DNA from: Candidatus Avispirillum sp.
Lineage (GTDB): Bacteria; Bacillota; Clostridia; Oscillospirales; CAG-272
Length of the DNA: 64,000 nt
Reading direction: 5' to 3'
Assembly: GCA_045656825.1 (NCBI GenBank)
Contig: JAZORY010000031.1
Location: 477-64,476 of the forward strand
The translations under genes and the position numbers were made by a program. This document shows, piece after piece, positions 23,249 through 37,778 of the stretch (within the stretch, counting starts at the first letter, position 1; each line of letters opens with the position of its first letter). Below the pieces are notes generated by a model. It did no database searches and was not told the origin of the DNA. It saw only the letters and a program-made list of their open reading frames with translations.

Positions 23249-24376
23249 TTACTCTTCAGTGATATTGATGCTAACGCCGTTTACGGTAACCTCATCCTCT
23301 GCGCGAATCATTATGTATTTTGTTCCGTCGATGATCTCGGTTTTAATAAGATCGGGACGCTCGGGATTAACCTTTATAACAACGTCGGGAGTTTTAACCT
23401 CAAACTGTTTTGTGTTGATGATGTTTTTGGGAGGAACCTCGGCTCTTTTGCCGAAGCTTTTATCAAACTGTTCGTCGAATGCAGTTATTTTTTCTTCTGC
23501 AACACCGCAGTCGGTAAGCACGTTTTTAACTGTTGCCTTGGAAATAAGAAGGGGCTCACGCACCTTTGCTGCCTTGTGCTCGTCAACCATAGTGCAGATC
23601 TTTTCGTGAACTGCCTGAACAATTTCCATATTACATTCGTTTGCAACGGTGTCTCCAAGGACAGCCTCAAAGGTTTCCTTCTGGATTGATGCTGGCATAG
23701 GGGGCTCACTTTTGAAAACCTTGTCTATAAATTCGTCCTGGCTGTCGGAAGTATTTCTTGTATAAAGAAGAGCACCGTAAATATTGGCAGCTCTGTCATC
23801 AAAGGCAGGGAACATAAAGCCAAGCTCAGGATTTGAGATAACGGAATTTGCCGCAACTGAATGAAATTCATCGCCATAATAGCTGAGAGCAGGCTTGGTC
23901 AGCTTTATAGGGCAGATGGAGCAAAGGAAATAGGAGAAAACAGTAGCTGAATCCTCGTCCTTGGAGCCGTCTCCGCCGTAGCTGAAAACGTCGTATTTAT
24001 CGCTTGCAAGCAGAATCAGATAGCTGCCTTCAATTTGAACGCTTTCAATAATGGCTTTGTAAAGCTTGTCAACTGCTTCGTCATTTTCAAGGGAGCTTGA
24101 ACGAAGCTCTGAAAGAAGCTTGTGCTCATCTCCTGAAACAACCTGATGAGTGGAAAATTCAATATCTATAAGATTCTTTCCGAGACCTCCGGAAAGGGTC
24201 TTTTTTATTATGGCCAGAAGCTCTTCCGTTTCGATTTCATTGAGCATAGCAAGAGAAGAGTTAAAAGTAGAAAGAATTTCTCTCTGCTCTGTAACGTAGC
24301 AACCGCGGATTCTCTGGATACTTGTCTTGTCGGGCGTTATTCTTCGGCGAAGCTCGCCTATTTCTTTTTCGTTCAT
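23249..24376 (-). CDS. DUF4317 family protein
   Basis: MNEKEIGELRRR, IRGCYV, KKTLSG, LCSICP, GFMFPAFDDRAANI; AGGAGG RBS. Confidence 0.82.
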   Translation of the reverse strand: MNEKEIGELRRRITPDKTSIQRIRGCYVTEQREILSTFNSSLAMLNEIETEELLAIIKKTLSGGLGKNLIDIEFSTHQVVSGDEHKLLSELRSSSLENDEAVDKLYKAIIESVQIEGSYLILLASDKYDVFSYGGDGSKDEDSATVFSYFLCSICPIKLTKPALSYYGDEFHSVAANSVISNPELGFMFPAFDDRAANIYGALLYTRNTSDSQDEFIDKVFKSEPPMPASIQKETFEAVLGDTVANECNMEIVQAVHEKICTMVDEHKAAKVREPLLISKATVKNVLTDCGVAEEKITAFDEQFDKSFGKRAEVPPKNIINTKQFEVKTPDVVIKVNPERPDLIKTEIIDGTKYIMIRAEDEVTVNGVSINITEE

Positions 24377-24482: not shown

Positions 24483-24534
24483 GGGGAGAAATGAAGAAAA
24501 GAGAAGGCTATAATGTGCACAGACTTTGCAAAGT
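24483..24534 (+). promoter_or_regulatory. Candidate promoter/operator of the virion-gene operon
   Basis: TATAAT at 24509-24514 with a non-consensus -35 region (GGGGAGAAA); perfect palindrome ACTTTGCAAAGT at 24523-24534. Confidence 0.45.
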
Positions 24535-24562: not shown

Positions 24563-25117
24563 ATGAAAGAAAACGAAACATTTGCAGAAGAGAAGGAGAG
24601 CAACGTAGAGAGAACGGCGCTCGAAGATCTTTTGCAGGAGCTTTCCGAGGAGCTTGACTGTAAGGACAGTTCTCCCGAGGAAATTCGTCGTGCGATTAAG
24701 AAAAGAAAGCTCAAAAAAATGCTTCAGGAGAAGGCGAAAGAAAATTCAAATCAAAAAAGATGCAGGTCTCGTCTTTTGGAGGCGAAGTCATTCGAAGAAG
24801 CAAATCCCAAGTTTGAGCTTCAGACAGAGCTGAAAAATCCTCTTTTTGCAGAGCTGCTCAGGTGCGGAGTTGATCTGGAGAGTGCATATAGCTTTGTTCA
24901 TCGCGACGAGATTATTGAAAAAATCAAGCTGGAGGCTGAACAAACAGGCTACGAAAAAGCTGTTGCGCATCTGCGCTCCGGCGCTCTTCGTCCGGAAGAA
25001 AACGGACTCAGAGAGCAAGGCGGAATATCGGAAAAGAAAAACGTTGCTAATTTAACAGGTGGCGGAATCAGGGATATTCTTCGCAAGGTTGAAAAAGGAG
25101 CAAAAGTTAAATTCTGA
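24563..25117 (+). CDS. Putative capsid scaffolding protein
   Basis: AGAAAGG RBS; charged helical protein directly before the capsid gene, with PKFEL..ELKNP.FA.LL..GV...AY..VH.DEI...RPEENG...KVEKGAKVKF C-terminus. Confidence 0.65.
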   Translation: MKENETFAEEKESNVERTALEDLLQELSEELDCKDSSPEEIRRAIKKRKLKKMLQEKAKENSNQKRCRSRLLEAKSFEEANPKFELQTELKNPLFAELLRCGVDLESAYSFVHRDEIIEKIKLEAEQTGYEKAVAHLRSGALRPEENGLREQGGISEKKNVANLTGGGIRDILRKVEKGAKVKF

Positions 25118-25134
25118 AAATGAAAGGAAAAATT

Positions 25135-26481
25135 ATGGAAAGAAACACTATGGTTGATCTTCAGCTTTTTGCAGCAGGCGAGATTGTAAACGGAACCGAG
25201 GCATATGTAAATGCCAATACAGCATCATCTGATGCTTATACGGAGGGTAATGCAGGACTTTCTGCGGAAATGAAGACCTTCTACGATAAAACACTTATTG
25301 AGCTTGCAAGCCCTAATCTTGTGTTTGATCAGTTTGCCCAGAAGCGTCCTATTCCCAGAAACGGCGGTAAGTCTATTGAATTTAGAAGATTCAACAGTCT
25401 TCCCAAGGCCATTCGCCCTATAACAGAGGGTGTAACTCCCACAGGCAGCAAGCTTACAGTAACACCCGTCAGCGCAACTGTTGACCAGTACGGAGACTAC
25501 GTTGAGCTGACAGATATGCTTGAGTTAACAAGTGTTGACCCCGTTGTAGTAGAAGCAACAAGACAGCTTGCCGATCAGGCTGGCAGAACTGTCGACACAG
25601 TAGTACGTAATCAGATCATGGGCGGAACTAACGTAAATTATTGTCCCTCAGTAGATGAGAACGGTGTTGAAACAGAGGTTACAAGCCGAGCTCAGCTTGA
25701 CGAGTCCTGTAAGCTGCGTGTGCGCGACGTATTCAAGGCAGCAGCACAGCTCAGAGCAATGAATGCGCCTACAATTGATGGCTCATACGTAGCCGTTATC
25801 CATCCCTACGTAGCTTTTGACCTTATGCAGGATGCAGAAGGTCAGTGGGTAGATATTCAGAAGTATGCAAAGCCTGAAAATATCCTTAACGGTGAGATCG
25901 GCACTCTCGGTGGTGTACGCTTTGTTCAGTCCTCCGAGGCAAAGATCTTCTATGGTAAGGATCTATCTGAAAACTCCAGAAACCTTACAGTTTCTGCATT
26001 TAAGTCTGATGCAAACGATGGTCCTGCCACTGCTGGTGAGTCTTCTCCTTACAGAGTAACAGTTAACGAGACTATTTCAAATGATCTTGTTGGCAGAAAG
26101 ATCATCTATAAGGGCAAGAATGGCAATGTTACAGCAACGATCGTTGGCGTAATTTTTGGTGCAAAGTATATCTATCTTGATCATTGTGATGGTATTACTT
26201 ATACAGCAGGTGATACAATTTGTCCCGGTGAGGGTGCCGCTGACGGCGGAGCCGCATTTGCAACTCTCTTTATCGGCGCTAACGCTTACGGTACAACCGA
26301 TATCGCAGGTGGCGGTATTGAGCATATTGTGAAGCAGAAGGGTTATGGTAACGACCCCCTTAATCAGCGCTCTTCCGTAGGCTGGAAGGCTTCCAAGGTT
26401 GCTTGTCGTCTTGTAGAGGAATATATGCTCAGAGTAGAAAGCTCTTCTTCTTTTGCGGCATCCGTAATGGAGGAAAACTGA
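25135..26481 (+). CDS. Major capsid protein, N4-gp56 family
   Basis: LQLFA N-terminus, LSAEMKTFYDKTLI, K.IEFRRF, TEGVTP, QYGDY, YVAVIHP, GEIG..GGVRFV, DPLNQRSSVGWK. Confidence 0.9.
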   Translation: MERNTMVDLQLFAAGEIVNGTEAYVNANTASSDAYTEGNAGLSAEMKTFYDKTLIELASPNLVFDQFAQKRPIPRNGGKSIEFRRFNSLPKAIRPITEGVTPTGSKLTVTPVSATVDQYGDYVELTDMLELTSVDPVVVEATRQLADQAGRTVDTVVRNQIMGGTNVNYCPSVDENGVETEVTSRAQLDESCKLRVRDVFKAAAQLRAMNAPTIDGSYVAVIHPYVAFDLMQDAEGQWVDIQKYAKPENILNGEIGTLGGVRFVQSSEAKIFYGKDLSENSRNLTVSAFKSDANDGPATAGESSPYRVTVNETISNDLVGRKIIYKGKNGNVTATIVGVIFGAKYIYLDHCDGITYTAGDTICPGEGAADGGAAFATLFIGANAYGTTDIAGGGIEHIVKQKGYGNDPLNQRSSVGWKASKVACRLVEEYMLRVESSSSFAASVMEEN

Positions 26482-26482
26482 T

Positions 26483-26680
26483 ATGGATAAGATGATGGAG
26501 ATTTTTATTCCCAGAAGAAACAAAGCAGACACTGAGCGTTACGTTGCGGTAAATGGTGAGAATATGCTTGTTCAGACAGGAAAGGTTGTCAGTATTCCTG
26601 CGCGCTTCGCAGAGGTGATTCTTGAAAGTCAGCGTTGCGATATGCTTGCAGAAAGATTTATTGAAGCAAATTCAAACTAA
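26483..26680 (+). CDS. Small phage-like protein following the capsid gene
   Basis: GGAGG RBS; YVAVNGEN..V..GK.V.IP..FAEVI; translationally coupled to the capsid gene. Confidence 0.7.
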   Translation: MDKMMEIFIPRRNKADTERYVAVNGENMLVQTGKVVSIPARFAEVILESQRCDMLAERFIEANSN

Positions 26681-26695
26681 ATCACGTAATAAAAG

Positions 26696-26724
26696 AGCTG
26701 CCTGCGGTTTTCCCGCAGGCAGCT
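26696..26724 (+). terminator. Post-capsid hairpin (attenuator or mRNA stabiliser)
   Basis: AGCTGCCTGCGG-ttttc-CCGCAGGCAGCT, 12-bp stem without a long U-tract. Confidence 0.65.
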
Positions 26725-26743
26725 TCATAGGATAGGAGGAAAT

Positions 26744-27106
26744 ATGAAAGTCAGCGAAATAATAACGCTTATTGATAAATATACCGGAGAGCCTATCGAA
26801 AATGAATTGAAATACAGATGGCTTCAGCAAATCGAGGATATTATATACAATGAGGTTATATTAACTCATAAAAGTCCGATGCAGAAGCCATCACCGGTAA
26901 TAAAATCGGATAGAGAGCTTCTTTGTCCCGAGCCTTATAGTGAGCTTTATATTCACTATCTGAATGCGCAGAACGATCTGATGCTGCGTGATTCGCGTAG
27001 CTTTGAAAATAGCGCCTCCGCCTTTGCATCGGCATTTAATTCATATATAGATTGGTATAACAGAACGTACTCTCCCAAAGAGTTGGCAGGTGAGATAAAT
27101 ATATGA
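26744..27106 (+). CDS. Putative head-tail adaptor protein
   Basis: AGGAGG RBS; helical 120 aa with LL.PEPY.ELY..YL.A..D motif; position between capsid and tail genes. Confidence 0.55.
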   Translation: MKVSEIITLIDKYTGEPIENELKYRWLQQIEDIIYNEVILTHKSPMQKPSPVIKSDRELLCPEPYSELYIHYLNAQNDLMLRDSRSFENSASAFASAFNSYIDWYNRTYSPKELAGEINI

Positions 27107-28857
27107 GGATACCGTATCAAAGGAAAAGTGCCGAAAAGAAAAAAGTAGCTTACAGCTTCAAGGGATTGGACAGAAGAATAGGGGCTAAGGAAGAAAGCTT
27201 TTATGAGATGACGAATATGAGCGGTCGTGAAGACAATTGTATTTCGACAAGGCTCTTGCGAGGGAAAATAGATCTTGATGCAAATAAAATCACCTCATTT
27301 ATTTCAACCGATATTAAGCTTGAGGGAAAAACAATAGAAAATGCCTTTATTGTGTCCAGTGGGTCTAATTTGAAAGCGTATTATTACGATAATGGAGTTT
27401 TCAAAAGTAAGCTGCTGCTAACGTATTCCGGAATAACAAACGAAAAGAATAAAATAATCGCATCAGGCGGATATCTTTATTTTTTTCCTGATAACGTATA
27501 TATAAATTTGATGGACCTGACGGATAAGGGAAGATTGAATTCAAACACGGAGCTCCCCTTTGGTGCTGTGGACGATACGTTTTATGAAATTGAAATAACG
27601 TCTGTTGATAAAAAGGGTCAAGTTGCTGAGAGCGGTTCGGGCTACGTAAGGCTTATGTCAAAGAAATATAAATATTATAATGCTGAAAAGGGTGAATTTC
27701 TTTCAAATCATCATTTTGCTTATAATCTGAAAGTCGGCGATTACGTTAAGGTTGAAGGCAATCCCATAATTAACGGGCTTCATAAAATAGAATACGTGTC
27801 AGAATACTTTGATTATATAGTTGTTTCTGCATTTATTGAATCTGACGTTATACAAAGCGATAAAGCGCTTTTTATCAACCGGGATATTCCTCAGATGGAC
27901 TACGTAACAGCCGCAGGCAATCGTCTGTGGGGATGCAGATACGGAGCTGATAAGGACGGTAAGCCCATAAATGAGATATACGCCAGTAAGCTGGGGGACG
28001 GAAGAAACTGGTATACCTTTGAGAATATATCAACAGATTCCTACGTAGCCTCCTTAGGTGTTGACGGTGTATTTACGGGCGCAGTAACCTTCGAGGGTGA
28101 TCCTGTATTTTTCAAGGAGGACCACCTGATAAGAATATATGGAAGCACTCCCTCAGATTTCACCGTAATTACAAGTAATATAAGAGGTATTGAAAAGGGC
28201 AGCTCTGAAAGTGCGGTTATCGTAGACGACACACTTTATTATAAAACTTATAACGGAATTGTAGCGTATAACGGAGGGCTTCCATATAACGTTGATGAAG
28301 CGCTTGGCAGCGAGGAATATAAAAACGCGGTTGCAGGATGCAGAAACGGAGATTATTACGTTTCAATGAAGAATTCCAAAGGAGAATACGAGCTTTTTGT
28401 TTACAACACGGCAAACAGAGAATGGTATCGTGAGGATAATACAAGGGCTCTGGAGTTCTGCAGAAATGGCAGCGAATTATATATGCTTGTTGAAGGCGAT
28501 GATGGAAAGTCGCTCGTCAGTATGGGCGGTACGGGAGATACTGCCGGAGAAAAGGACGTAGAGTGGAGCATTAGCACGAGGATGGATTATATGATTCCGT
28601 ATAGAAAAGCTGTTAAAAGGCTTGAATTTAAGATGAGGCTGGATGAGGGAGCATTTTTTGTGGCAGAGATAAGCTATGATGAGGAAAATAAATGGCATAA
28701 AATATGCTCAGAGTACGGTAAAAAGGGAATAGTGTCCATTCCGATACGGCCGCGTAGATGTAACAGCTTCAGCATCAGATTCAGAGGGCGCGGCGGTTTT
28801 AAGCTAATATCTGTGGTAAGGACTATCACCGCAAACGGAGATAACGTAGGAGATTGA
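27103..28857 (+). CDS. Putative podovirus tail nozzle/DNA-stabilisation protein (P22 gp10/T7 gp12-like role)
   Basis: F.GLD start, beta-rich, NRLWGC...NEIYASKLGD..NW, DSY..S.G.DG.FTGA, FFKE, C-terminal IPIRPRRC. Confidence 0.6.
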   Translation: MRIPYQRKSAEKKKVAYSFKGLDRRIGAKEESFYEMTNMSGREDNCISTRLLRGKIDLDANKITSFISTDIKLEGKTIENAFIVSSGSNLKAYYYDNGVFKSKLLLTYSGITNEKNKIIASGGYLYFFPDNVYINLMDLTDKGRLNSNTELPFGAVDDTFYEIEITSVDKKGQVAESGSGYVRLMSKKYKYYNAEKGEFLSNHHFAYNLKVGDYVKVEGNPIINGLHKIEYVSEYFDYIVVSAFIESDVIQSDKALFINRDIPQMDYVTAAGNRLWGCRYGADKDGKPINEIYASKLGDGRNWYTFENISTDSYVASLGVDGVFTGAVTFEGDPVFFKEDHLIRIYGSTPSDFTVITSNIRGIEKGSSESAVIVDDTLYYKTYNGIVAYNGGLPYNVDEALGSEEYKNAVAGCRNGDYYVSMKNSKGEYELFVYNTANREWYREDNTRALEFCRNGSELYMLVEGDDGKSLVSMGGTGDTAGEKDVEWSISTRMDYMIPYRKAVKRLEFKMRLDEGAFFVAEISYDEENKWHKICSEYGKKGIVSIPIRPRRCNSFSIRFRGRGGFKLISVVRTITANGDNVGD

Positions 28858-28860
28858 TGA

Positions 28861-29058
28861 ATGAAGATAAGAGTTAGTGCGCCTCCGATTATGAAGGGCG
28901 ATAAATATGACGGCGATAAGCTGACCGCATGGCTTTATCAGCTTTCACTTGCTGTCAATATGGGCTTTGCCAATATCAATTATGATAATCTTAACGAGCA
29001 ATTAAGATCGGATATAGAAAGGGTGATAGATAACAAGGATGGCAACGAACAAGCTTGA
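28861..29058 (+). CDS. Small phage-like protein
   Basis: GGAG RBS; 65 aa, coupled to its neighbours; LTAWLYQLS..VN..FANI...N helical motif. Confidence 0.55.
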   Translation: MKIRVSAPPIMKGDKYDGDKLTAWLYQLSLAVNMGFANINYDNLNEQLRSDIERVIDNKDGNEQA

Positions 29059-29605
29059 ATATAGCACAGAGCTTAAAAATGATGCTGAAAAGTCCTATGA
29101 CGAATGGAAAAAGGATAAAGAGCCGAAGTTCAACGGAACCTATAAGGATGAAATTGATAAAACAAGAATAGCTCTTGAAAACAGAAATTTTGTCTATGAC
29201 GTCGATTCAGATGAAGCGTATAAAAAATATAAGGAAAGCGTTAAAAGCAGCGCAGAGCTTGCTTTAGCTGATGCGATGGGTGAGGCGGCATCACTCAACG
29301 GAGGCTATTCAACGTCATATGCGCAGCTGGCGGGGCAGGCAGCATATACCAACACTATGAAAAGTGCTGATGAAAAGGTGCTTGAGTTTTACAAAGAGGC
29401 ATACGATAGATTTTCAGATGAAACCGATAATATTGAGGACCGGTTGGATATTCTTCTGGAGATGGATGATGCCGAATGGGATAGATACGTTGATATGCTT
29501 GAGGAGTATAATGAAGAGGGTGAACGCCTCTTTGATCAGCTTAGAGAAATGTCTGACGAAGAATTTGATCGTTTCTATTCAATGTATAAGCTTTCAGTTA
29601 AATAA
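29039..29605 (+). CDS. Putative internal virion/DNA ejection-like protein
   Basis: Acidic helical protein with F.YD...D.AY..Y and AMGEAASLNGGYSTSYAQLAGQAAY; last gene of the module. Confidence 0.45.
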   Translation: MATNKLEYSTELKNDAEKSYDEWKKDKEPKFNGTYKDEIDKTRIALENRNFVYDVDSDEAYKKYKESVKSSAELALADAMGEAASLNGGYSTSYAQLAGQAAYTNTMKSADEKVLEFYKEAYDRFSDETDNIEDRLDILLEMDDAEWDRYVDMLEEYNEEGERLFDQLREMSDEEFDRFYSMYKLSVK

Positions 29606-29631
29606 AAAAACGCCCGATCGGGCGTTTTTTT
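29604..29631. terminator. Bidirectional terminator closing the virion module
   Basis: AAAAAAACGCCC-gatc-GGGCGTTTTTTT. Confidence 0.8.
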
Positions 29632-31327
29632 AAGGCTGAGCTATTTTGACAGAATCAATAAACTTCATAATAATATCTTCTCTTTCAAGCTCGTCTTCTA
29701 TGTACAGATGGACTATGTAATCAGGGGATATCTGTATAAGCACAGAATAATAGCCTTCTATTCCGCGAGGCTCTTTTTGCAGAAAATAAGAATAACGGTT
29801 TCCCTTTGAGGTGGTGCCTGTGAAGAATTCACTCATATATAATTCTCCGCCAATGAGCCTCCTTGAATTAGCTTCATCAAGTGTAACGTCAGCCTGAATC
29901 AATCTCATAACAGTCATTGCGCTTATGTAGCCCGGATAATCTGATTTGTCAAAATACTTAAAATATCTTCCGTCAGCACCGTTCCAGTGCTCAGGGATAT
30001 CAAAGCTTATGGTGATGGGCTCAAAATTAGTGAGAATTTCCTGATCTTGATAATCTGCATCTTCATCATAACCATAGCAAAATACAATTTTGTAGTTTTC
30101 GTTAGTAAATAAGAGATTATCAAAATCAACGACCTTAACGGGAGTTACGTTTATGATATCAACCTCGCCGGATTCTTTTCTAAGATGTAGGATGTATTCC
30201 GTTCCTGTTTTATCCTTGATGATAGTTTTGTTGTACGAAAGGAATTTTTCGGCTTCGTTAAAATTTTTGAACTTGATATTCAGGGCATATTCGTAGGCGT
30301 TTTTAGCTAATACCTCAAGCTTTGTTTGCTTGATAATTTCAATAACCTCGTCAGCAGTTTCATACGAGCTCACATTGTTTTGCCACTGTTCAGTCATAGG
30401 AGTCTGCATTTTGTCCATATCATTTCGGTAGAAATAATAGGGGAGATCATTATACAGCATAAGCTCGTCAATATTCAAAAACAGCTCTCCCGAATCAAAC
30501 CATACAGGATGAAGCTTTGACAGATCAAGACTGTACCATTTATTCCAAAGGCATAGATAATTCCAATAGTGTCTCGGCTCGGGAATAGTATACGTGATGG
30601 AGCTTGTATTTGTCGTGTAATCATATTCGTGATTTTCCGTGTACCCGTAAACCACAAAGGAGGGAATCCCTGCTTTTTTCAATAGAAGATCAAAGGACTT
30701 TGCCAAACCCTCTGAGTCGGAAACACCTTCTGTCAGGGTAGTGTAGATCGTTGTTGCTTCACTGTCATCAACCAGTCTGGTGTTTGCTATAAGATAGTCA
30801 ACTATTTCAAAAACGATTTCTTTGTCAGAAAGACCTGTTGGGATAGCAGAGATGATATCGTCTGCTCTTTTTATTATAGTATTATATTCCTTTTCGAAGT
30901 TCTCAGAATTAAAATCATCCGAAATCATAACGGCAGCAATTTTGTCTGCATCAGCGGTAAAGGTGATATTATCAAGTACATCGCTGTGTGTCGCAAAGTT
31001 GCCTCTGAAAATGTCCATAGCTATGTCAAAGGCTTCAACTTTTACACTCTGTTTAAGAGCTATTGATTTTGATGCCTCAGGTGAAGAGATCAACTTTGCA
31101 ATAGCTTCGTATATGACTTTCTCGCTGTTTGTAAGAAGATTATAAGAAGGGATACTCAGTGCATTTGGATAAGCCTTGCTTTTCCTCGTTTCCACCTCTG
31201 GAATTTTTTGAGGTTCAGTGTCGGCGGTTGTTGTATCTGTATCCGTATTGGAATTGGTGTTATCACAAGCGCCAAGCATTGAAAAAAGCAGAGCACACGT
31301 GATCAGGGCGATGATCAATCTTTTCAT
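29630..31327 (-). CDS. Lipoprotein with a degenerate transglutaminase-like domain
   Basis: AAGGAGG RBS, lipobox LGAC, T/D linker; DSEGLAKSFDLLLKKAGIPS...HYWN....NKWYSLD. Confidence 0.7.
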   Translation of the reverse strand: MKRLIIALITCALLFSMLGACDNTNSNTDTDTTTADTEPQKIPEVETRKSKAYPNALSIPSYNLLTNSEKVIYEAIAKLISSPEASKSIALKQSVKVEAFDIAMDIFRGNFATHSDVLDNITFTADADKIAAVMISDDFNSENFEKEYNTIIKRADDIISAIPTGLSDKEIVFEIVDYLIANTRLVDDSEATTIYTTLTEGVSDSEGLAKSFDLLLKKAGIPSFVVYGYTENHEYDYTTNTSSITYTIPEPRHYWNYLCLWNKWYSLDLSKLHPVWFDSGELFLNIDELMLYNDLPYYFYRNDMDKMQTPMTEQWQNNVSSYETADEVIEIIKQTKLEVLAKNAYEYALNIKFKNFNEAEKFLSYNKTIIKDKTGTEYILHLRKESGEVDIINVTPVKVVDFDNLLFTNENYKIVFCYGYDEDADYQDQEILTNFEPITISFDIPEHWNGADGRYFKYFDKSDYPGYISAMTVMRLIQADVTLDEANSRRLIGGELYMSEFFTGTTSKGNRYSYFLQKEPRGIEGYYSVLIQISPDYIVHLYIEDELEREDIIMKFIDSVKIAQP

Positions 31328-31382
31328 TTGAACCTCCTTATAAGCATTAGGGCGTGGAAATAAAATTCCCACGCCCTTAATA

Positions 31383-31757
31383 TTATTCTGAGTAAGCAGC
31401 TGCAAAAAGCTCTTTTATTCGATTTTGTTCACCCATCAGATGAAGATAGGCAAACAAACATTCAAAGCCTGTTGCGCGGCTATACTGCGCGTGGGTTGCG
31501 CTTTTTGGGGCAGAGTGCGTATTGTTTCTACCCCTTTTATAAACGCTCAGCTCATCGTCGTTCAGCATATGCTCAATTTTGGTGAATGCCTCACTCTGAG
31601 CAACAGCGGTAACGTATGTCAATGCCTTTGCATTTATCTCGCCGATGCCGCCAACGTTGCCTAGGATAAGCTTTTCTCGAACGAGCAGCTCGAGCACACA
31701 GTCTCCGAGATAGGCAAGGTAAGTTGTTGGCAGGTTAATTATTTCTGTTTTAGTCAT
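31383..31757 (-). CDS. mrnC: Mini-ribonuclease III
   Basis: LAYLGDCVLEL.VR, YVTAVAQS, KRGRN, YSRATGFECLFAYL. Confidence 0.9.
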   Translation of the reverse strand: MTKTEIINLPTTYLAYLGDCVLELLVREKLILGNVGGIGEINAKALTYVTAVAQSEAFTKIEHMLNDDELSVYKRGRNNTHSAPKSATHAQYSRATGFECLFAYLHLMGEQNRIKELFAAAYSE

Positions 31758-31758
31758 A

Positions 31759-34700
31759 TTATATCTTTCTCTTGATATATCGGTATTTAATCTTCTGGAA
31801 GCGGTTAAGACCTGCATAAACAGAAGCTGTTATATCAGCAAGGTATTCGGCAAGCATTGCATTTTCTTCAAATGTAAGTCCGTGTCCGAATTCTTCCTTC
31901 TGGATAATATTGAAAATTTCCTCTGCCTTGATTTTAGAAAGATCGCCATACGTGTTGGCAATTCGTCTGCCGTAATCGGTTGACAGCTCGCCTTTTTCAG
32001 GGGCAGCGCCGATAACCTCAAGGATATCAAAAATCTGGTCGTTGATCCTTCTTGCCATAGAATGTTTATCTGTCTTGGGATCATTCCAAACGTCAACGTC
32101 TCTTGCTCTTCTTATAAGATCGTATCTGTCTGCAAGCATGTTGACGCCTCGGCGTATAAATCGTTTGATCAGCAGTCTGACGATAAAGCCGATAAGGATA
32201 GCTGCGGCAACAGAGGATACAACAATAATAAATTTCTGAATCTCCGTAATCTCATCAACGTATTCGTCTTCGAAGTCATCACCGATATGGTCGTCTTCAG
32301 TAGGAGGCGGAGGCGGTGTAGAGTTGCTTTGATCATTGGGGTCAACGGGTTCGATCGTAGCACTGTCGGGATTGTACATATCGTCGTAATAAGCAGGTGT
32401 TGTTTCATAGGGAAGCCAGCCCATTCCGTCGTAGTAAACCTCTATCCATGCATGAGCGTTACTGTCAAGAACCGCAGCGTTGTAAGCACCGTATTTATCG
32501 GTGAAGTCCGTTGCGATATACCCTTCAACAAATCTTGTAGGGATACCCATTTCGCGCAGAATAGCGCAAGCAGCCGTTGCGAAGTGAGAGCAATATCCCT
32601 CGCGCACGTCAAATATAAACGCGTCAAGTATGCTTCCTGCTCCGGGATAAAGGGCTTCATTGGGAGTAATTGTATATTTGCAGTTGTCCTTTAAGTAGTT
32701 TATAACCCTTAGAATAAGCTGATGCTTTTCTGTTTCAATCTCAACCTGAGCTGCTTCATAAATCTCAGCTGCAAGATTCTCGATTTTTTCGCTGCCAAAG
32801 GGGGTTAGGTAGTTGCTTGCAACGAATTCTCTGTATGAAAGCTCAGTCTGAACACTTGAATCAAAGGATGCTCTTTCAGATTCTGACATAACGTTGAAGT
32901 ATCTGTCAACCAAGCTTGTTCCGATATAGGTGATGCCGTTTTCCTGAAGAGAAAATTCGTATTCAAGAATTCCGCTGTCGATTGTTTCCTTATCAGCATC
33001 GCGGAGCTTTTCAATAGCTGAGAGAGAAGCGTTGTAATAGGCAATCGCATTTTCAAGCTCTGCCGAAAAACCTTCTCTGTTCATTCTGGTGATGTAAGAG
33101 ATTGAAGCATAAGCATCGCCTGCTTCGAAAAATCTTGATGAATAAATTCCCTCATAGTAGTTGGAATATTTCTTCATTATGGGGTCAAGCGTTTGCTTTT
33201 CGAGAAGACCGTGATCAATATCCATTGAATAGGGAACAAACATCAGTCGGCTGTAACCAAGATTTCTGAAAACTGAAACGGACTGCATGGTAAATCCGAA
33301 TTTGCTGAAATTTTTGTAGATTTCAGCTTCTGTGATTTCCGCCGTGGAAGGATAAACGTATTTTTTGAAGGACGTGGAGATCATATCCGGAGTAAAGCTC
33401 TCTCCGAATTGCTGCCTATATGTAAGAACCTTGTCATAATCGGCACCGGTCCAGGTGTCTGAATAATAATCAAAGGAGTCAGCTGACCATCCCTTCAAAT
33501 ATACGTTATTGTCAGACGTGGTAGTAACAGAAAACGTTTGCACGTCCTCGTATTCCAGCGGGGCAAAGGAGAGCTTTCTTGGAGTCAGCTCTTCAATACC
33601 GTAGCCTGAAAGGTCGTTTAAGTCGATGTCGTTACCGGAAAGATATGCAGTAACGTAGTAGTTTGCGATATTGACCTTGTTGTAAACAGGCTCGATCTTA
33701 GCAAAGGGTCCATTAACAGCCAATGCGGGCAGACCTGCAATGAGCAGAGCGAGAACTGCTGTTCCTATTCCCGCAATACCACCTGCTGCTGAAACAAGAT
33801 CGCTGCGATGTCGAGCTTCTTTCTTTTTAGCCTTGGCATCAGCCTTTGCGGCTTTTTTGAGAGATTTAAGATTTTGCTTGCTTTCAATTCTTGCATTTAG
33901 CTGAGATTTGGCGTTAAGATCGTTTTTTGATAACGATTTAAGCCTTTTGAGCTCAGCTCTGTCGGCTTTTCTGTCAAGCTTTTTCTGCTTCTTTTCTGCC
34001 TTACGACGTCGCTTTTCGGATTTTTTATCATTCTTTTTTGCAAGCTTGTGAGCTTTGAAAACAGCTTTTCCTGCAAGTCTTGATTTTTTTGCACCCATGT
34101 CAGCCTTGAGAGCCGCCATAAGCATTTTGTCAGCTTCCTCACGAAGAGCCTTCTTTTCTTCTTTTATCAAAGCTCGCTTAGCCTTTTTAGCCTCGCGCTT
34201 TTCAATACGAAGTCGTATTCTTTCGTTTTTTCTTTCAAGTCCACCGGCAAATCTGTAATCGTAAATGTAAAGCGTAAGCGTTGCAACGATGAAGGCTACG
34301 CTGAATACAAATCCGATTGTGCCTTTTGATAGATTAAACATCAAGGTTGGTCCGAGGAATAAAACACAAACGGGAGCTATCAGAAACAGGCGAACTTTTT
34401 TCATCATTGAGAAGCCTATCATAGCTCCGATAACAAACGTTAGTATGAAAACTCCGCCGAGACGCAGATTGTCGCTTGAAACGTAAGCTGCATTGGAGTA
34501 ATCGTAGGCTTCCTTTATCATATAGTCGCTGAAATACATATACCCTCTGGAGATCATAGTGTATATGCAGTAGTTGTAAATTCTTACAACAGAATCGATG
34601 ATATAATCAAAGGGATTTCCGTATGATATAGCACATATGCCGAGGTATGCTGCAACAAACGAAGGGAAGGCTATAAACGGCGCTGCTCTGTTGTATGAAG

Positions 34701-35004
34701 CGAACCCAAAAACGGCGGATATAATAAGAGCTGCGAGAGCAATCATACCAACGGGAACGTAATAACCGCTCCAGTAGATTTCGTTATATGTCAGCGCAAA
34801 GAAATCCGCAACAAAAGCGCTGATACCGAAGGTACCCATAAACATAATAATTGCTCTGAGGGATATGCCAATGATCCGTGAAGCTGTTGTACTTATCTCC
34901 GCAGGAGAATAAATGATATCCGTAGGGGGCGTTCTCTTGGGTCTTTTGTTTTTAACTTTAGAGCCTTTTATGGTGCTGAGGAGCTTGTTAATAAAATTTC
35001 TCAT
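31759..35004 (-). CDS. Multi-pass membrane transglutaminase-domain protein (TgpA-like)
   Basis: N-terminal TM helices; GYCSHFATA...MGIPTRFVEGY...HAWIEVY..GMGWLPYETTP with the catalytic Cys and His intact. Confidence 0.88.
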   Translation of the reverse strand: MRNFINKLLSTIKGSKVKNKRPKRTPPTDIIYSPAEISTTASRIIGISLRAIIMFMGTFGISAFVADFFALTYNEIYWSGYYVPVGMIALAALIISAVFGFASYNRAAPFIAFPSFVAAYLGICAISYGNPFDYIIDSVVRIYNYCIYTMISRGYMYFSDYMIKEAYDYSNAAYVSSDNLRLGGVFILTFVIGAMIGFSMMKKVRLFLIAPVCVLFLGPTLMFNLSKGTIGFVFSVAFIVATLTLYIYDYRFAGGLERKNERIRLRIEKREAKKAKRALIKEEKKALREEADKMLMAALKADMGAKKSRLAGKAVFKAHKLAKKNDKKSEKRRRKAEKKQKKLDRKADRAELKRLKSLSKNDLNAKSQLNARIESKQNLKSLKKAAKADAKAKKKEARHRSDLVSAAGGIAGIGTAVLALLIAGLPALAVNGPFAKIEPVYNKVNIANYYVTAYLSGNDIDLNDLSGYGIEELTPRKLSFAPLEYEDVQTFSVTTTSDNNVYLKGWSADSFDYYSDTWTGADYDKVLTYRQQFGESFTPDMISTSFKKYVYPSTAEITEAEIYKNFSKFGFTMQSVSVFRNLGYSRLMFVPYSMDIDHGLLEKQTLDPIMKKYSNYYEGIYSSRFFEAGDAYASISYITRMNREGFSAELENAIAYYNASLSAIEKLRDADKETIDSGILEYEFSLQENGITYIGTSLVDRYFNVMSESERASFDSSVQTELSYREFVASNYLTPFGSEKIENLAAEIYEAAQVEIETEKHQLILRVINYLKDNCKYTITPNEALYPGAGSILDAFIFDVREGYCSHFATAACAILREMGIPTRFVEGYIATDFTDKYGAYNAAVLDSNAHAWIEVYYDGMGWLPYETTPAYYDDMYNPDSATIEPVDPNDQSNSTPPPPPTEDDHIGDDFEDEYVDEITEIQKFIIVVSSVAAAILIGFIVRLLIKRFIRRGVNMLADRYDLIRRARDVDVWNDPKTDKHSMARRINDQIFDILEVIGAAPEKGELSTDYGRRIANTYGDLSKIKAEEIFNIIQKEEFGHGLTFEENAMLAEYLADITASVYAGLNRFQKIKYRYIKRKI

Positions 35005-35018
35005 AAGATCTCCTCCGC

Positions 35019-36797
35019 TTAAAAGTCAGCTGAAATCAGCGTGGAAACGCCGTTGTCAGTTGTAATGTATTTGAATTCTGTCATATGTATTCCGCAGCCA
35101 ATGAGGCGCTCCTTGCAGGTTGCGCCGTATTCGCGTCTGGCGGCAGGATTTGTGTATCTTTTTTCGGGATTAAAGAGCATAATCTCGCATGTGCATCCTG
35201 CTCCGGCGCCGCCAAACATCGCAGGCACAGCGCAATATTCGGAGAGGGAAATGGGATCTATGTTGGACGTAACAAATTTGATCGTAACGTTCATGGCTTC
35301 CGAAACGATTCTTATAAGATCAGTGATCTTTTTGTCGTTTTCAACTGTTGGTGCAGATGCAAATTTGTTAAAGGCTGCCTCAAGCTCAACGGGAGAGGAT
35401 ATGCTGTAATAGGAAAAACCTCTGTCCTCGCGGGGATCATACCAAACAAGAGTACATCTGTTTCCTCTGGAGAGCTCACGTTTGATTGCGGATAGTGTTA
35501 TTTCAACTATTCCGTCAGCGCAGAACTCAGCCATATCGTCCTCATATTCGCTTTTGGGTTTTCCGCCCCACGACATTACAGCATCGTCGAGCAAAGGAGA
35601 GTCTTCGTCTCCGGTCAGTTCATTGATGCTTTCATAAAGCTTGTCAATAACGGCTTTTTCGGCTGCTTCCTCTGCTGCGAGTTTTTCGAGAATAGACTCT
35701 TTTTTCTGAAGGAATTCAGCATTTCTTTCCTTCTTCTGCGCTTCCTTAAATGCTTTTCTGCGCTTAGCTGAGGCAAAGGCTGTGTCGCTGATAAGACGGT
35801 CGATCGCATCAATGGTTTCCATTGTGCTGTCATCTGCTCTTGATCTGCGTCTGCGTTCCTTTTTTGCTTTTTTGGTAAACAAGCCTTTGAGTCCGATTTT
35901 GAGTTTTTTGCCGATTTTTTCAGCCTCGTCTAAAGCCACTACGAAGGCAGCATCGCGAAGTCGAATTTTTTTCTTTTCTTTAAGCTTAAGCGATTTTTTC
36001 ATCTGCTTGATAGCAGTTTGGCGCTTTATCTCGGGACATGGTGTGGCAGCTGCAAGGTCTGCGAAAATATAAACGTTGCGATCGCGATTTATGCTGAAGT
36101 CCTTGACCTGCAATTCCTCTGTTTTGGAGGAAAGCTTCCAGTGAATAGTTTTCTGAGAGTCTCCCTGCCTGTATTCGCGAATATTTGCTGCCTCTGCCAT
36201 TTCAGCAGTTACAGTTGGCGCGTGTACAGAGGGCATTTCGGTGTAGGCGTGATGGTCTTCGCTTGAAACGTTTAACATTCTCGGAAAAACAAGAACGTTG
36301 CTGTAATTATCGATTACAACTCTCATTCTCACAAGTCTGAGCATATCGCAAACGTAAATGTCGCTGACGCCTATTTCATAAAGACCTCTGTATCTGAAAG
36401 AAATCTGCTTGTTGATAATATAGCCGCCAAAGGGTGCAAGTGAGAGATAAATTTTTCTCTTAAGGCAGCGAATTCCGTCATCTCTCGGTTGAGTTATATA
36501 AGCCTCAACAAAGGGATAGGGAATGGGCGCATTGTTTATAACTCTGATTTCGTATCCTACCAATTGATCCTTTTCAACCCTTGCAGCATCACTTGAAACG
36601 TATACCTGAATAGCTGAACAGCCGATACGCGCACAAATAATAGACACTATGGGCAAAAGGAACAAAAACCAGAAGAGAATTGCGGAAATCGGATGGCGCA
36701 TAGCCTGAGTGGCAAGAAAAGAAATAATAAGGAGAATTGCATATAGCCACGATCCGCCAAGAAGCTGAAAATGTCGTCCGCTTTCTTTGTTATTCAT
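35019..36797 (-). CDS. DUF58 domain protein
   Basis: YRGLYEIG, IREYRQGDSQKTIHWKLSSK..L.VK; downstream of MoxR. Confidence 0.88.
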   Translation of the reverse strand: MNNKESGRHFQLLGGSWLYAILLIISFLATQAMRHPISAILFWFLFLLPIVSIICARIGCSAIQVYVSSDAARVEKDQLVGYEIRVINNAPIPYPFVEAYITQPRDDGIRCLKRKIYLSLAPFGGYIINKQISFRYRGLYEIGVSDIYVCDMLRLVRMRVVIDNYSNVLVFPRMLNVSSEDHHAYTEMPSVHAPTVTAEMAEAANIREYRQGDSQKTIHWKLSSKTEELQVKDFSINRDRNVYIFADLAAATPCPEIKRQTAIKQMKKSLKLKEKKKIRLRDAAFVVALDEAEKIGKKLKIGLKGLFTKKAKKERRRRSRADDSTMETIDAIDRLISDTAFASAKRRKAFKEAQKKERNAEFLQKKESILEKLAAEEAAEKAVIDKLYESINELTGDEDSPLLDDAVMSWGGKPKSEYEDDMAEFCADGIVEITLSAIKRELSRGNRCTLVWYDPREDRGFSYYSISSPVELEAAFNKFASAPTVENDKKITDLIRIVSEAMNVTIKFVTSNIDPISLSEYCAVPAMFGGAGAGCTCEIMLFNPEKRYTNPAARREYGATCKERLIGCGIHMTEFKYITTDNGVSTLISADF

Positions 36798-36812
36798 ATA
36801 ATGATCCTTTGC

Positions 36813-37778
36813 TTATCTACCTGTTTTGAAGGGAACCTCAACACCCTTGAACGCTTCCTTAATAGCATCCTCAGCGCTAACGCGATTAAGACGTGCATCC
36901 TGGCTGAGAACGATTCTGTGAGTGATGGCGCTTGCAAACAAAGCTGCAACGTCCTCTGCAATAACGTAATCGCGTCCGTTAATAAGAGCGTATGCCTGGC
37001 TGAGTCTCATAAGAGCGAGAGAAGCTCTGGGAGAAGCGCCGAGAGAGATTGATTTTGAATGTCTTGTGGCATTGATCAGCTGAACGATATATCGGCTGAT
37101 CTCTCCTGAAACGCGAACCTCGGAGGCCTCTTTGATCATAGCCTTGATCTCATCTGCATCAGTAACGGAAACGACGTCATCTATGGGGTTAACACCCTTT
37201 CTGGCAGAAAGGATCATCATTTCCTCAGTTTCTGTGGGATATCCCATAGAAAGTCTGAGAGAGAATCGGTCAAGCTGCGCTTCAGGAAGCGGATATGTAC
37301 CAACGTATCCGCTGGGGTTCTGAGTTGCGATAACCATAAAGGGCTGAGGAATAGCATAAGTGCTTCCGTCAACAGTTACCTTTTTTTCTTCCATAGCTTC
37401 AAGAAGGGCAGACTGAGTTTTAGGTGAAGCACGGTTGATCTCGTCTGCAAGCATAATGTTGCACATAACGAGACCCTCTCTGAATTCAAAATTTTCTTTT
37501 GCGCGGTTGTAGATGTTAAAGCCTGTAATGTCGGAGGCCATAACGTCAGGGGTGAACTGAGCGCGGTTGAATTCAAGTCCGCAAGCCTTGGAAAGCGCGG
37601 AAGCAAGTGTTGTTTTGCCTGTACCGGGAACGTCTTCAATAAGAACGTGTCCGCCTGCAAGGAGTGCACAGATCAGCATAGTGATCTCGTTTTTCTTACC
37701 AACAACTACTTTTTCAACCTCTGCAATAAGGCGAGAGATGGTTTCTGTTGTTTTTGTTGTAACCTGATTGTTTTCCAT
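36813..37778 (-). CDS. MoxR family AAA+ ATPase
   Basis: GHVLIEDVPGTGKT, QFTPD, ADEINRASPKTQSALLEAMEE, GTYPLPEAQLDRF, GASPR. Confidence 0.95.
   Translation of the reverse strand: MENNQVTTKTTETISRLIAEVEKVVVGKKNEITMLICALLAGGHVLIEDVPGTGKTTLASALSKACGLEFNRAQFTPDVMASDITGFNIYNRAKENFEFREGLVMCNIMLADEINRASPKTQSALLEAMEEKKVTVDGSTYAIPQPFMVIATQNPSGYVGTYPLPEAQLDRFSLRLSMGYPTETEEMMILSARKGVNPIDDVVSVTDADEIKAMIKEASEVRVSGEISRYIVQLINATRHSKSISLGASPRASLALMRLSQAYALINGRDYVIAEDVAALFASAITHRIVLSQDARLNRVSAEDAIKEAFKGVEVPFKTGR

Follow-up and report, generated by a model that had tools for sequence, protein, structure and literature searches.

Among the closest described systems is FpGTA of Faecalibacterium prausnitzii, the first gut and the first podovirus-like candidate for a gene transfer agent (GTA). 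The available text of its report describes 40-nm particles with ~9 kb of DNA, with delivery not shown and with control and completeness left open (Borodovich et al., Nat Commun 2026; PMC12946183). FpGTA has TerL, portal, Prp, scaffold and an N4-gp56 capsid, together with a BppU-like fibre and a holin in a second operon, and the same protein set was contained in its purified particles, according to the same text (PMC12946183). Further GTA candidates in gut Clostridia are reported in the part of a preprint available to us (bioRxiv 10.64898/2026.07.08.737213). Here we describe a likewise podovirus-like system, with all of the components just named, in Candidatus Avispirillum (Oscillospirales). 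It includes a block of seven genes in a stretch of 64,000 nucleotides of contig JAZORY010000031.1 (assembly GCA_045656825.1, positions 477 to 64,476 of the forward strand), hereafter the window. We put at roughly 70% the probability that this block supplies the head-and-nozzle operon of a podovirus-derived system that the host keeps in dispersed form, and that this system is most likely a gene transfer agent of the FpGTA type, one that would package host DNA. Our literature search turned up neither a paper describing a GTA in this genus nor one describing the promoter element treated below.

A podovirus-derived gene set dispersed over six loci

The source genome (G000) is a 1.44-Mb metagenome-assembled genome (MAG) of 76 contigs with 85% completeness. 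Its window block holds seven intact open reading frames (ORFs), all on the + strand from 24563 to 29605 and all single-copy in the genome. The block neither contains nor adjoins a gene for terminase, portal, integrase, tail fibre or lysis, and the contig extends ~35 kb to its right and ~25 kb to its left. An initial annotation of the window had read the block in the same way, and had supposed either the genes of a GTA-like particle with packaging genes elsewhere or a DNA-free capsid structure. Using profiles made from related phage loci, we sought the missing genes across the genome. A packaging locus is present on contig C56 (30.6-34.1 kb), with host genes on its flanks: an 82-aa gene in the TerS position comes first, and TerL (PF04466/PF03237), a P22-like portal (PF16510) and the Prp protease (PF04327) accompany it. 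A fibre and lysis locus on C4 shows the order BppU_N, LRR_5, an 83-aa protein, an r1t holin and Amidase_2. Orphan packaging and lysis genes, as anticipated by the initial annotation, are consequently found elsewhere in the genome, consistent with its GTA-like supposition. A regulator operon on C29 (L166, G000:C29:1869-2808) codes for a Cro-like helix-turn-helix (HTH) protein, a Zn-finger protein and a 70-aa four-cysteine protein, and two lone phage replication-initiator genes, a DUF6291 gene and a Phage_rep_org_N gene, are located on C67 and C69, respectively. Each of the six loci has host genes on its flanks inside its contig and, being spread over five contigs, they would form no single packagable unit unless adjacent.

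The packaging locus bears directly on the notion that the capsid is a DNA-free structure or nanocompartment serving the host. Such a structure would fit a window devoid of packaging genes and a packaging locus adjoining a Cys-rich host gene of unknown function; however, the conservation of terminase and portal, and the promoter element that they have in common with the block, speak against it. With nozzle, holin and amidase likewise conserved, under purifying selection and preceded by the same element, we regard it as highly improbable. Across the genus the neighbours of the packaging locus are kept, with an aminotransferase at 18 of 21 loci and the Cys-rich gene at 17 of 21. The latter, a 280-aa gene after Prp (L141:12219-13061), has no Pfam, PHROGs or NCBIfam match, and the region upstream of it resembles what we take to be a sporulation sigma-E promoter.

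A shared promoter-like element

An element of the form (G/A)GGGAGAAA-N17-TAnnnT is found upstream of the window block and of the five other phage-derived loci of G000. Both the head-tail and the packaging operons show the 12-mer ATGGGGAGAAAT, with TAnnnT following 16 nt on. The exact 12-mer has six copies in the 1.44 Mb of G000, as against ~0.2 expected from base composition, and five of these have the -10 hexamer in register, the other three being placed before the C4 BppU_N operon, the C67 DUF6291 gene and the C69 Phage_rep_org_N gene. The C29 regulator operon is preceded by a one-base variant, and the sixth exact copy (on C45) is associated with neither a hexamer nor a phage gene. A sigma-70 scan of the window region, with 11 sites against 13.8 expected, missed the element.

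In the genus, the element is upstream of 24 of 26 head-tail loci, all 20 assessable packaging loci, 14 of 21 assessable regulator loci, 11 of 15 BppU loci (one match being doubtful), 14 of 19 assessable DUF6291 loci and three of four rep-organiser loci, and before none of the six prophage scaffolds tested. As background, it precedes 19 of 1367 G000 ORFs, three of which are the same phage-derived genes. Genome-wide, the 25 genus genomes give 139 matches versus 53 in the reversed control, and 16 other genomes 27 versus 27.

Single occurrences elsewhere are also on record. A near-perfect element lies at G000:C46:24384-24414 (- strand) and in L211 (G023), before an apparent operon of a dGTPase, a primase and the main sigma factor, an arrangement seen in several subclade genomes. 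The host dnaD-loader operon has the element in G006 and a degenerate form of it in G000. In G022 (L207:1268-2209) it precedes a 314-aa ricin-B-lectin and peptidase C39-like protein, possibly a further cargo or a cell-wall enzyme.

A candidate activator and its control

The 70-aa four-cysteine gene is present in 21 of 24 relatives and, at the search sensitivity used, in none of the 16 other genomes; searches of Pfam, PHROGs, NCBIfam and Atlas with its product returned hypothetical proteins only. Many related phages carry it just before terS-terL; in several of them it is followed by a G-rich box and -10 hexamer identical or similar to those of Avispirillum, and some phages repeat the box before the scaffold gene. 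This position suggests that the 70-aa protein is a candidate late activator. The break of the operon between Prp and scaffold would be accounted for by an internal promoter at that point.

The G000 regulator promoter holds a GAAC-ATTT-GTTC box, one of only two in the genome, which agrees with GAAC-N4-GTTC, given as the Bacillus subtilis LexA consensus in the source text available (PMC4234289). At 21 regulator loci such an SOS box is exact in nine cases and approximate in three. One-mismatch boxes are further found upstream of recA and of what we take to be a DinB-like gene. The regulator operon is directly followed by tRNA-Ser(GGA) in five genomes and by other tRNAs in two, and this position is possibly the relic of an original integration site.

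Related phages (L036/L037, L051/L052, L075 and L076) carry an identical or similar element in front of terS and scaffold, which makes cross-activation possible, and intact prophages of the same family reside in at least five genus genomes. Hence one might picture a phage-interference or satellite-like host system, whose genes would be switched on by the late activator of a related phage, diverting its assembly or releasing decoys. Yet the presence of an own candidate activator, along with a complete packaging, tail and lysis set, means that no helper is needed, and the six prophage scaffolds tested lack the element; we therefore consider this unlikely.

Phyletic distribution, descent and selection

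A capsid match is present in 23 of 24 genus genomes as against two of 16 others, and TerL was matched in 23 of the 24. The portal-less seven-gene type occurs in 22 of the 24; its left flank is visible in 20, with a portal in none. As for the remainder, G014 has a prophage copy of the capsid only and G022 has none. Outside the genus, a capsid relative was detected in 35 of 300 genomes of the order, and of 20 such loci fetched, 17 have the portal in the same locus, two are cut by contig ends and one is arranged otherwise. Therefore, the split form is a trait of the genus among the genomes searched. Other genera of the order (L343-L345, L346-L347, L349-L350 and L352-L354, several species each) show contiguous terL-to-lysis blocks among host genes, which may represent further domestications; in L346 and L347 the scaffold gene is preceded by the same element.

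For the trees, the non-genus sequences were dereplicated from 163 to 52 and from 104 to 42. The stand-alone capsids and terminases each fall on one side of a branch (SH-like approximate likelihood ratio test support 97 and 96) and apart from the prophage copies of the same genomes. Splits are shared with RpoB, the one host marker used (11-12 genomes), in six of eight cases for the capsid, eight of eight for the nozzle, eight of nine for TerL and six of eight for the portal, while the unlinked capsid and portal genes share 12 of 14 splits with each other. The comparison of capsid and host trees called for by the initial annotation thus yields a single genus clade that divides largely as the host does. 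Within the capsid clade are two IMG/VR contigs (L031, L034); both bear host genes known from the flanks of the block in the genus and are probably pieces of chromosome.

The genes are under purifying selection, as had been supposed from their intact frames: pairwise dN/dS ratios of nonsynonymous to synonymous change (Nei-Gojobori, up to 11 genome pairs per gene) are 0.00-0.05 for the capsid, 0.015-0.07 for TerL, 0.03-0.07 for the portal, 0.06-0.17 for the nozzle and 0.09-0.49 for the scaffold, values that are rough, two pairs being saturated and dS reaching about 1 or more in most comparisons with G000. As low dN/dS alone is insufficient, the separation from phage rests on fixation, dispersal and co-divergence.

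The neighbours of the head-tail block differ over the genus, with DUF4317 adjoining it in just four of 22 relatives. Thus, DUF4317 is rejected as a fixed partner, synteny holding in a subclade only, and one sign named beforehand as speaking against domestication, namely variable loci, is partly present; on account of the trees, this is to be understood as relocation within the chromosome and not as repeated acquisition. The varying neighbours and the fragmentation of the MAG also raise the prospect of a decaying or mis-assembled prophage. Against this, every locus is host-flanked on both sides, and the two integrase matches in G000 (at C56:87.4 kb and on C28) are far from all of them, the layout of a temperate prophage (contiguous element, integrase, att sites, replication module) not being encountered. 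The 30 head-tail loci comprise 210 gene slots, of which 182 hold a whole gene, 10 a gene cut at a locus end and one a split gene (the G019 adaptor), while 17 are empty in the locus; for the 63 packaging slots the figures are 59 whole, two cut, none split and two missing. With one split gene among 193 head-tail copies, none among 61 packaging copies and one clade per gene, decay has a probability close to nil and is already refuted, unless the loci prove to be joined in one element in long-read genomes.

Gene content and edges of the head-and-nozzle operon

The features of the window are as follows:

23249..24376, - strand: left host neighbour, DUF4317 (PF14199, E 5.5e-131), outside the module
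24483..24514, + strand: shared promoter-like element GGGGAGAAA-N17-TATAAT, with a G-rich box at the -35 position and a sigma-A type -10 hexamer
24563..25117, + strand: likely scaffold protein, 184 aa (phrog_13908, unknown function, E 1.9e-23; in phages this position lies between Prp and capsid)
25135..26481 (alternative start 25120), + strand: major capsid protein of the N4-gp56 family, 448 aa (TIGR04387, PF25209, phrog_1357)
26483..26680, + strand: 65-aa conserved virion-module protein (phrog_15239), after the capsid gene in every case
26696..26724, no strand assigned: perfect 12-bp hairpin at the boundary of capsid and tail genes, terminator-like for the - strand
26744..27106, + strand: likely head-tail adaptor, 120 aa, by position only (phrog_12105, unknown function; precedes the nozzle in all relatives)
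27103..28857, + strand: podovirus tail nozzle (P22 gp10 / T7 gp12-like), 584 aa, by fold match (nearest Atlas family PF11134)
28861..29058, + strand: 65-aa protein, candidate fibre anchor (cluster c10 profile, E 7.8e-5)
29039..29605, + strand: 188-aa helical protein (cluster c6; phrog_5750, E 0.009)
29603..29632, no strand assigned: bidirectional terminator-like palindrome, perfect 15+15
29630..31327, - strand: right host neighbour, transglutaminase-like protein, outside the module

Most of this agrees with the initial annotation, including the short divergent region (186 bp) beside DUF4317, the internal hairpin and the right-hand terminator. Its identification of the capsid is borne out by a score of 267 bits against TIGR04387 (cut-off 60). 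The nearest named relatives of the capsid are those of the Bacillus podoviruses Page, Pony and Pascal (36% identity). Its N-terminus bears the Prp-type cleavage motif DLQLF-A, conserved throughout the genus and comparable to MLxx(D/N)LQ(F/L)F'A in the available description of Prp cleavage (PMC9405229). Some genus clades have a 90-aa beta-rich insertion at residues ~275-365 (proteins of 448-455 aa), which others lack (359-364 aa). The nozzle was likewise correctly proposed: its structure model, with a predicted local distance difference test score (pLDDT) of 89.8, retrieves short-tail nozzles (Pa223, PhiM1, T7 gp12 and P22 gp10) as the top Foldseek matches (Pa223 tail, E 1.9e-16; P22 gp10, E 1.2e-12). 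This placement came from the fold search alone, a profile search of the PDB having given no match under E 0.16.

The scaffold-, adaptor- and ejection-like labels fare less evenly, in that the positions fit while the PHROG matches are weak or unnamed only. The 184-aa scaffold is shorter than its phage counterparts and lacks the N-terminal Prp motif kept by most relatives. The 65-aa protein after the nozzle shows weak likeness to the N-terminus of a tail-fibre-like gene in the same position in related phages, and we infer that the 188-aa protein is a shortened relative of a phage internal or ejection-type protein. Beyond the operon, a right flank conserved in the subclade (window positions 29630-37778) comprises MoxR AAA, DUF58 and transglutaminase genes together with those for a Mini-III RNase and another transglutaminase-like protein.

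Accessory modules: lone initiators and MuF cassettes

The two lone initiators belong to different families and share the same C-terminal SFDTDDFFEAAL-type tail, which is found in just three of 8165 G000 frames, the third being that of a host DnaD-domain protein whose gene precedes the one for a PRK06835 loader-type ATPase. The tail sites lie in L164:987-1496 and L165:759-1556 (C67 and C69 of G000) and in L402:1342-1476. Neither tail nor element was seen in four prophage-type initiators examined, and one prophage has the tail in a gene neighbouring its initiator. The lone initiators may engage the host loader, either starting extra replication, in the manner of BaGTA run-off replication, or blocking it. 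A conserved origin inside these genes was considered and dropped, 39-bp repeats being present in the C67 family only.

In G013 (L209), G014 (L232) and G024 (L227) the element precedes each of a set of tandem MuF-like toxin-immunity cassettes with Phage_Mu_F, barnase-type Ribonuclease, DUF6883 and Barstar domains, located beside recA in G014, where the MuF-RNase gene is interrupted by a stop. Such cassettes, along with fibre genes differing greatly in length and the failure to find a large ejection protein in G000, would suit particles that are mainly weapons or kin-discrimination devices (PBSX/tailocin-like), in which DNA would be packaged without being delivered, a MuF-fused toxin or membrane damage serving as payload. 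This option is also left open by the authors of FpGTA in the text available (PMC12946183). However, the DUF6883 cassette was found in seven of 24 relatives but neither in G000 nor in the other 17, whereas packaging genes are near-universal, and we judge a primarily weapon-like role to be rather unlikely.

Mechanistic interpretation

The gene inventory, the shared element, vertical inheritance and purifying selection described above are the basis on which the following course of events is proposed. DNA damage or another signal would lift the repression of the C29 operon, whose promoter overlaps the GAAC-N4-GTTC box in this subclade. Its 70-aa four-Cys protein would then activate every (G/A)GGGAGAAA-N17-TAnnnT promoter, its own included, resulting in an all-or-none switch in a subpopulation. 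Proheads would be assembled from scaffold, capsid and portal, with Prp cutting the capsid N-terminus at LQLF-A. In most genomes TerS has 79-92 aa and lacks the N-terminal HTH-like part, and TerL with the 82-aa TerS of G000 is predicted to pack headfuls of chromosome with no preferred start. Adaptor, nozzle and BppU/LRR fibres would make up the short tail, lysis being effected by holin and amidase. The lone initiators, via their DnaD-like tails, might engage the host helicase loader and thereby amplify DNA or stall normal replication.

Several points weigh against the GTA interpretation. The system is known in this genus from genes alone. A profile search of G000 did not find the 1,300-2,600-aa virion protein of related phages, which was matched in only five of 25 genomes, on prophage-like contigs; this makes DNA delivery doubtful and the weakest step. 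BppU_N is present in only 14 of 25 genomes and the lone initiators in only about half. Five genomes have a 142-144-aa TerS with an HTH-like N-terminus, and a short TerS also occurs at some non-genus loci. The activator role is argued from position and co-occurrence, and a fold search with a model of the 70-aa protein gave no clear structural match (best Z 3.8). The element also stands before host genes in single genomes, some surely by chance, which we presume from their motifs to include the dGTPase-primase-sigma factor operon and gyrase. The SOS box is absent at nine of 21 regulator loci. Of five genomes, lexA was found in G004 and G009, with no box seen before it, and not found in G000, G006 and G013 (85, 63 and 84% complete); for this reason SOS control of the regulator operon is plausible only. 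Finally, most pairs with G000 approach saturation in dS, and low dN/dS is seen in active phages too.

Six criteria for treating gene transfer agents as viriforms are listed in the available text of their proposal (PMC9662315). In the present case the particle proteins are caudoviricete-derived; endogenisation over several loci, with no integrase nearby, is full as judged from sequence, a criterion that also asks for experiment; and inheritance is mostly vertical with co-diversification with the host. The other criteria are a whole gene set that is not packable, encapsidation of mostly random host DNA and delivery of that DNA to cells (PMC9662315, in the same text).

A more far-reaching version, in which a single-promoter Gram-positive GTA regulon combines helicase-loader-hijacking initiators, amplifying or freezing the chromosome ahead of packaging, with swappable MuF cargo, uniting gene transfer and kin discrimination, and the 70-aa protein represents a new class of late activator, is a speculative possibility that we put forward tentatively. 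The genus supplies a complete inventory of parts together with a candidate activator, and its 32-bp element allows scattered members to be found in any genome; by these means the regulation, DNA supply and cargo of Gram-positive GTAs become directly testable. It further provides an example of a phage late operon broken at an internal promoter and yet kept, and a warning, from L031 and L034, that domesticated loci enter virus catalogues as phage contigs.

Comparison with known systems

The Pagevirus-like podoviruses (Bacillus phages Page, Pony and Pascal) and gut Oscillospirales phages have the same gene order, and some of these related phages show the same element and four-Cys gene before terS. 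In contrast to the dispersed, host-inherited Avispirillum genes, they have one contiguous late operon, replication genes and the large virion protein. MuF polymorphic toxins reportedly consist of a MuF domain and a toxin domain, followed by an immunity gene; the Avispirillum cassettes differ in being chromosomal, away from the head operons, tied to them by the element alone and present in some relatives only.

Among GTAs, RcGTA is said to be directly activated by GafA. It differs in having a siphovirus-type particle, in its occurrence in Alphaproteobacteria and in a capsid, tail and regulator unrelated to those of Avispirillum. It is similar in that, per the available text, the genes of RcGTA (Rhodogtaviriformidae) are spread over several loci and vertically inherited (PMC9662315). 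BaGTA of Bartonella resembles the present system in possessing a separate phage-derived replication locus tied to GTA output, with run-off replication, as given in the part of the preprint available (bioRxiv 10.64898/2026.07.08.737213). Unlike in that locus, no phage helicase or primase locus was identified in Avispirillum, which has lone initiator-domain genes only, with a host-like tail and in roughly half of the genomes.

FpGTA comes closest. The nozzles of both have P22 gp10 (8eap) as a structural match, and in both TerS is without an obvious DNA-binding domain, the system is genus-wide and the structural loci are free of replication and integration genes. Operon I of FpGTA (terS to nozzle) is one 10.5-kb block, whereas in Avispirillum it corresponds to two unlinked operons, cut between Prp and scaffold. 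Given this difference in operon structure, we do not class the system, compared here by published protein families, as FpGTA itself. The portion of the FpGTA text examined, whose remaining supplements may bear on regulation, describes no shared promoter, activator, SOS box, lone initiators or MuF cassettes. The FpGTA-like kind of system is already known and is here more dispersed; what is new is the shared promoter, the SOS box of the regulator operon, the initiators with a DnaD-like tail and, in some relatives, the MuF-toxin/immunity cassettes.

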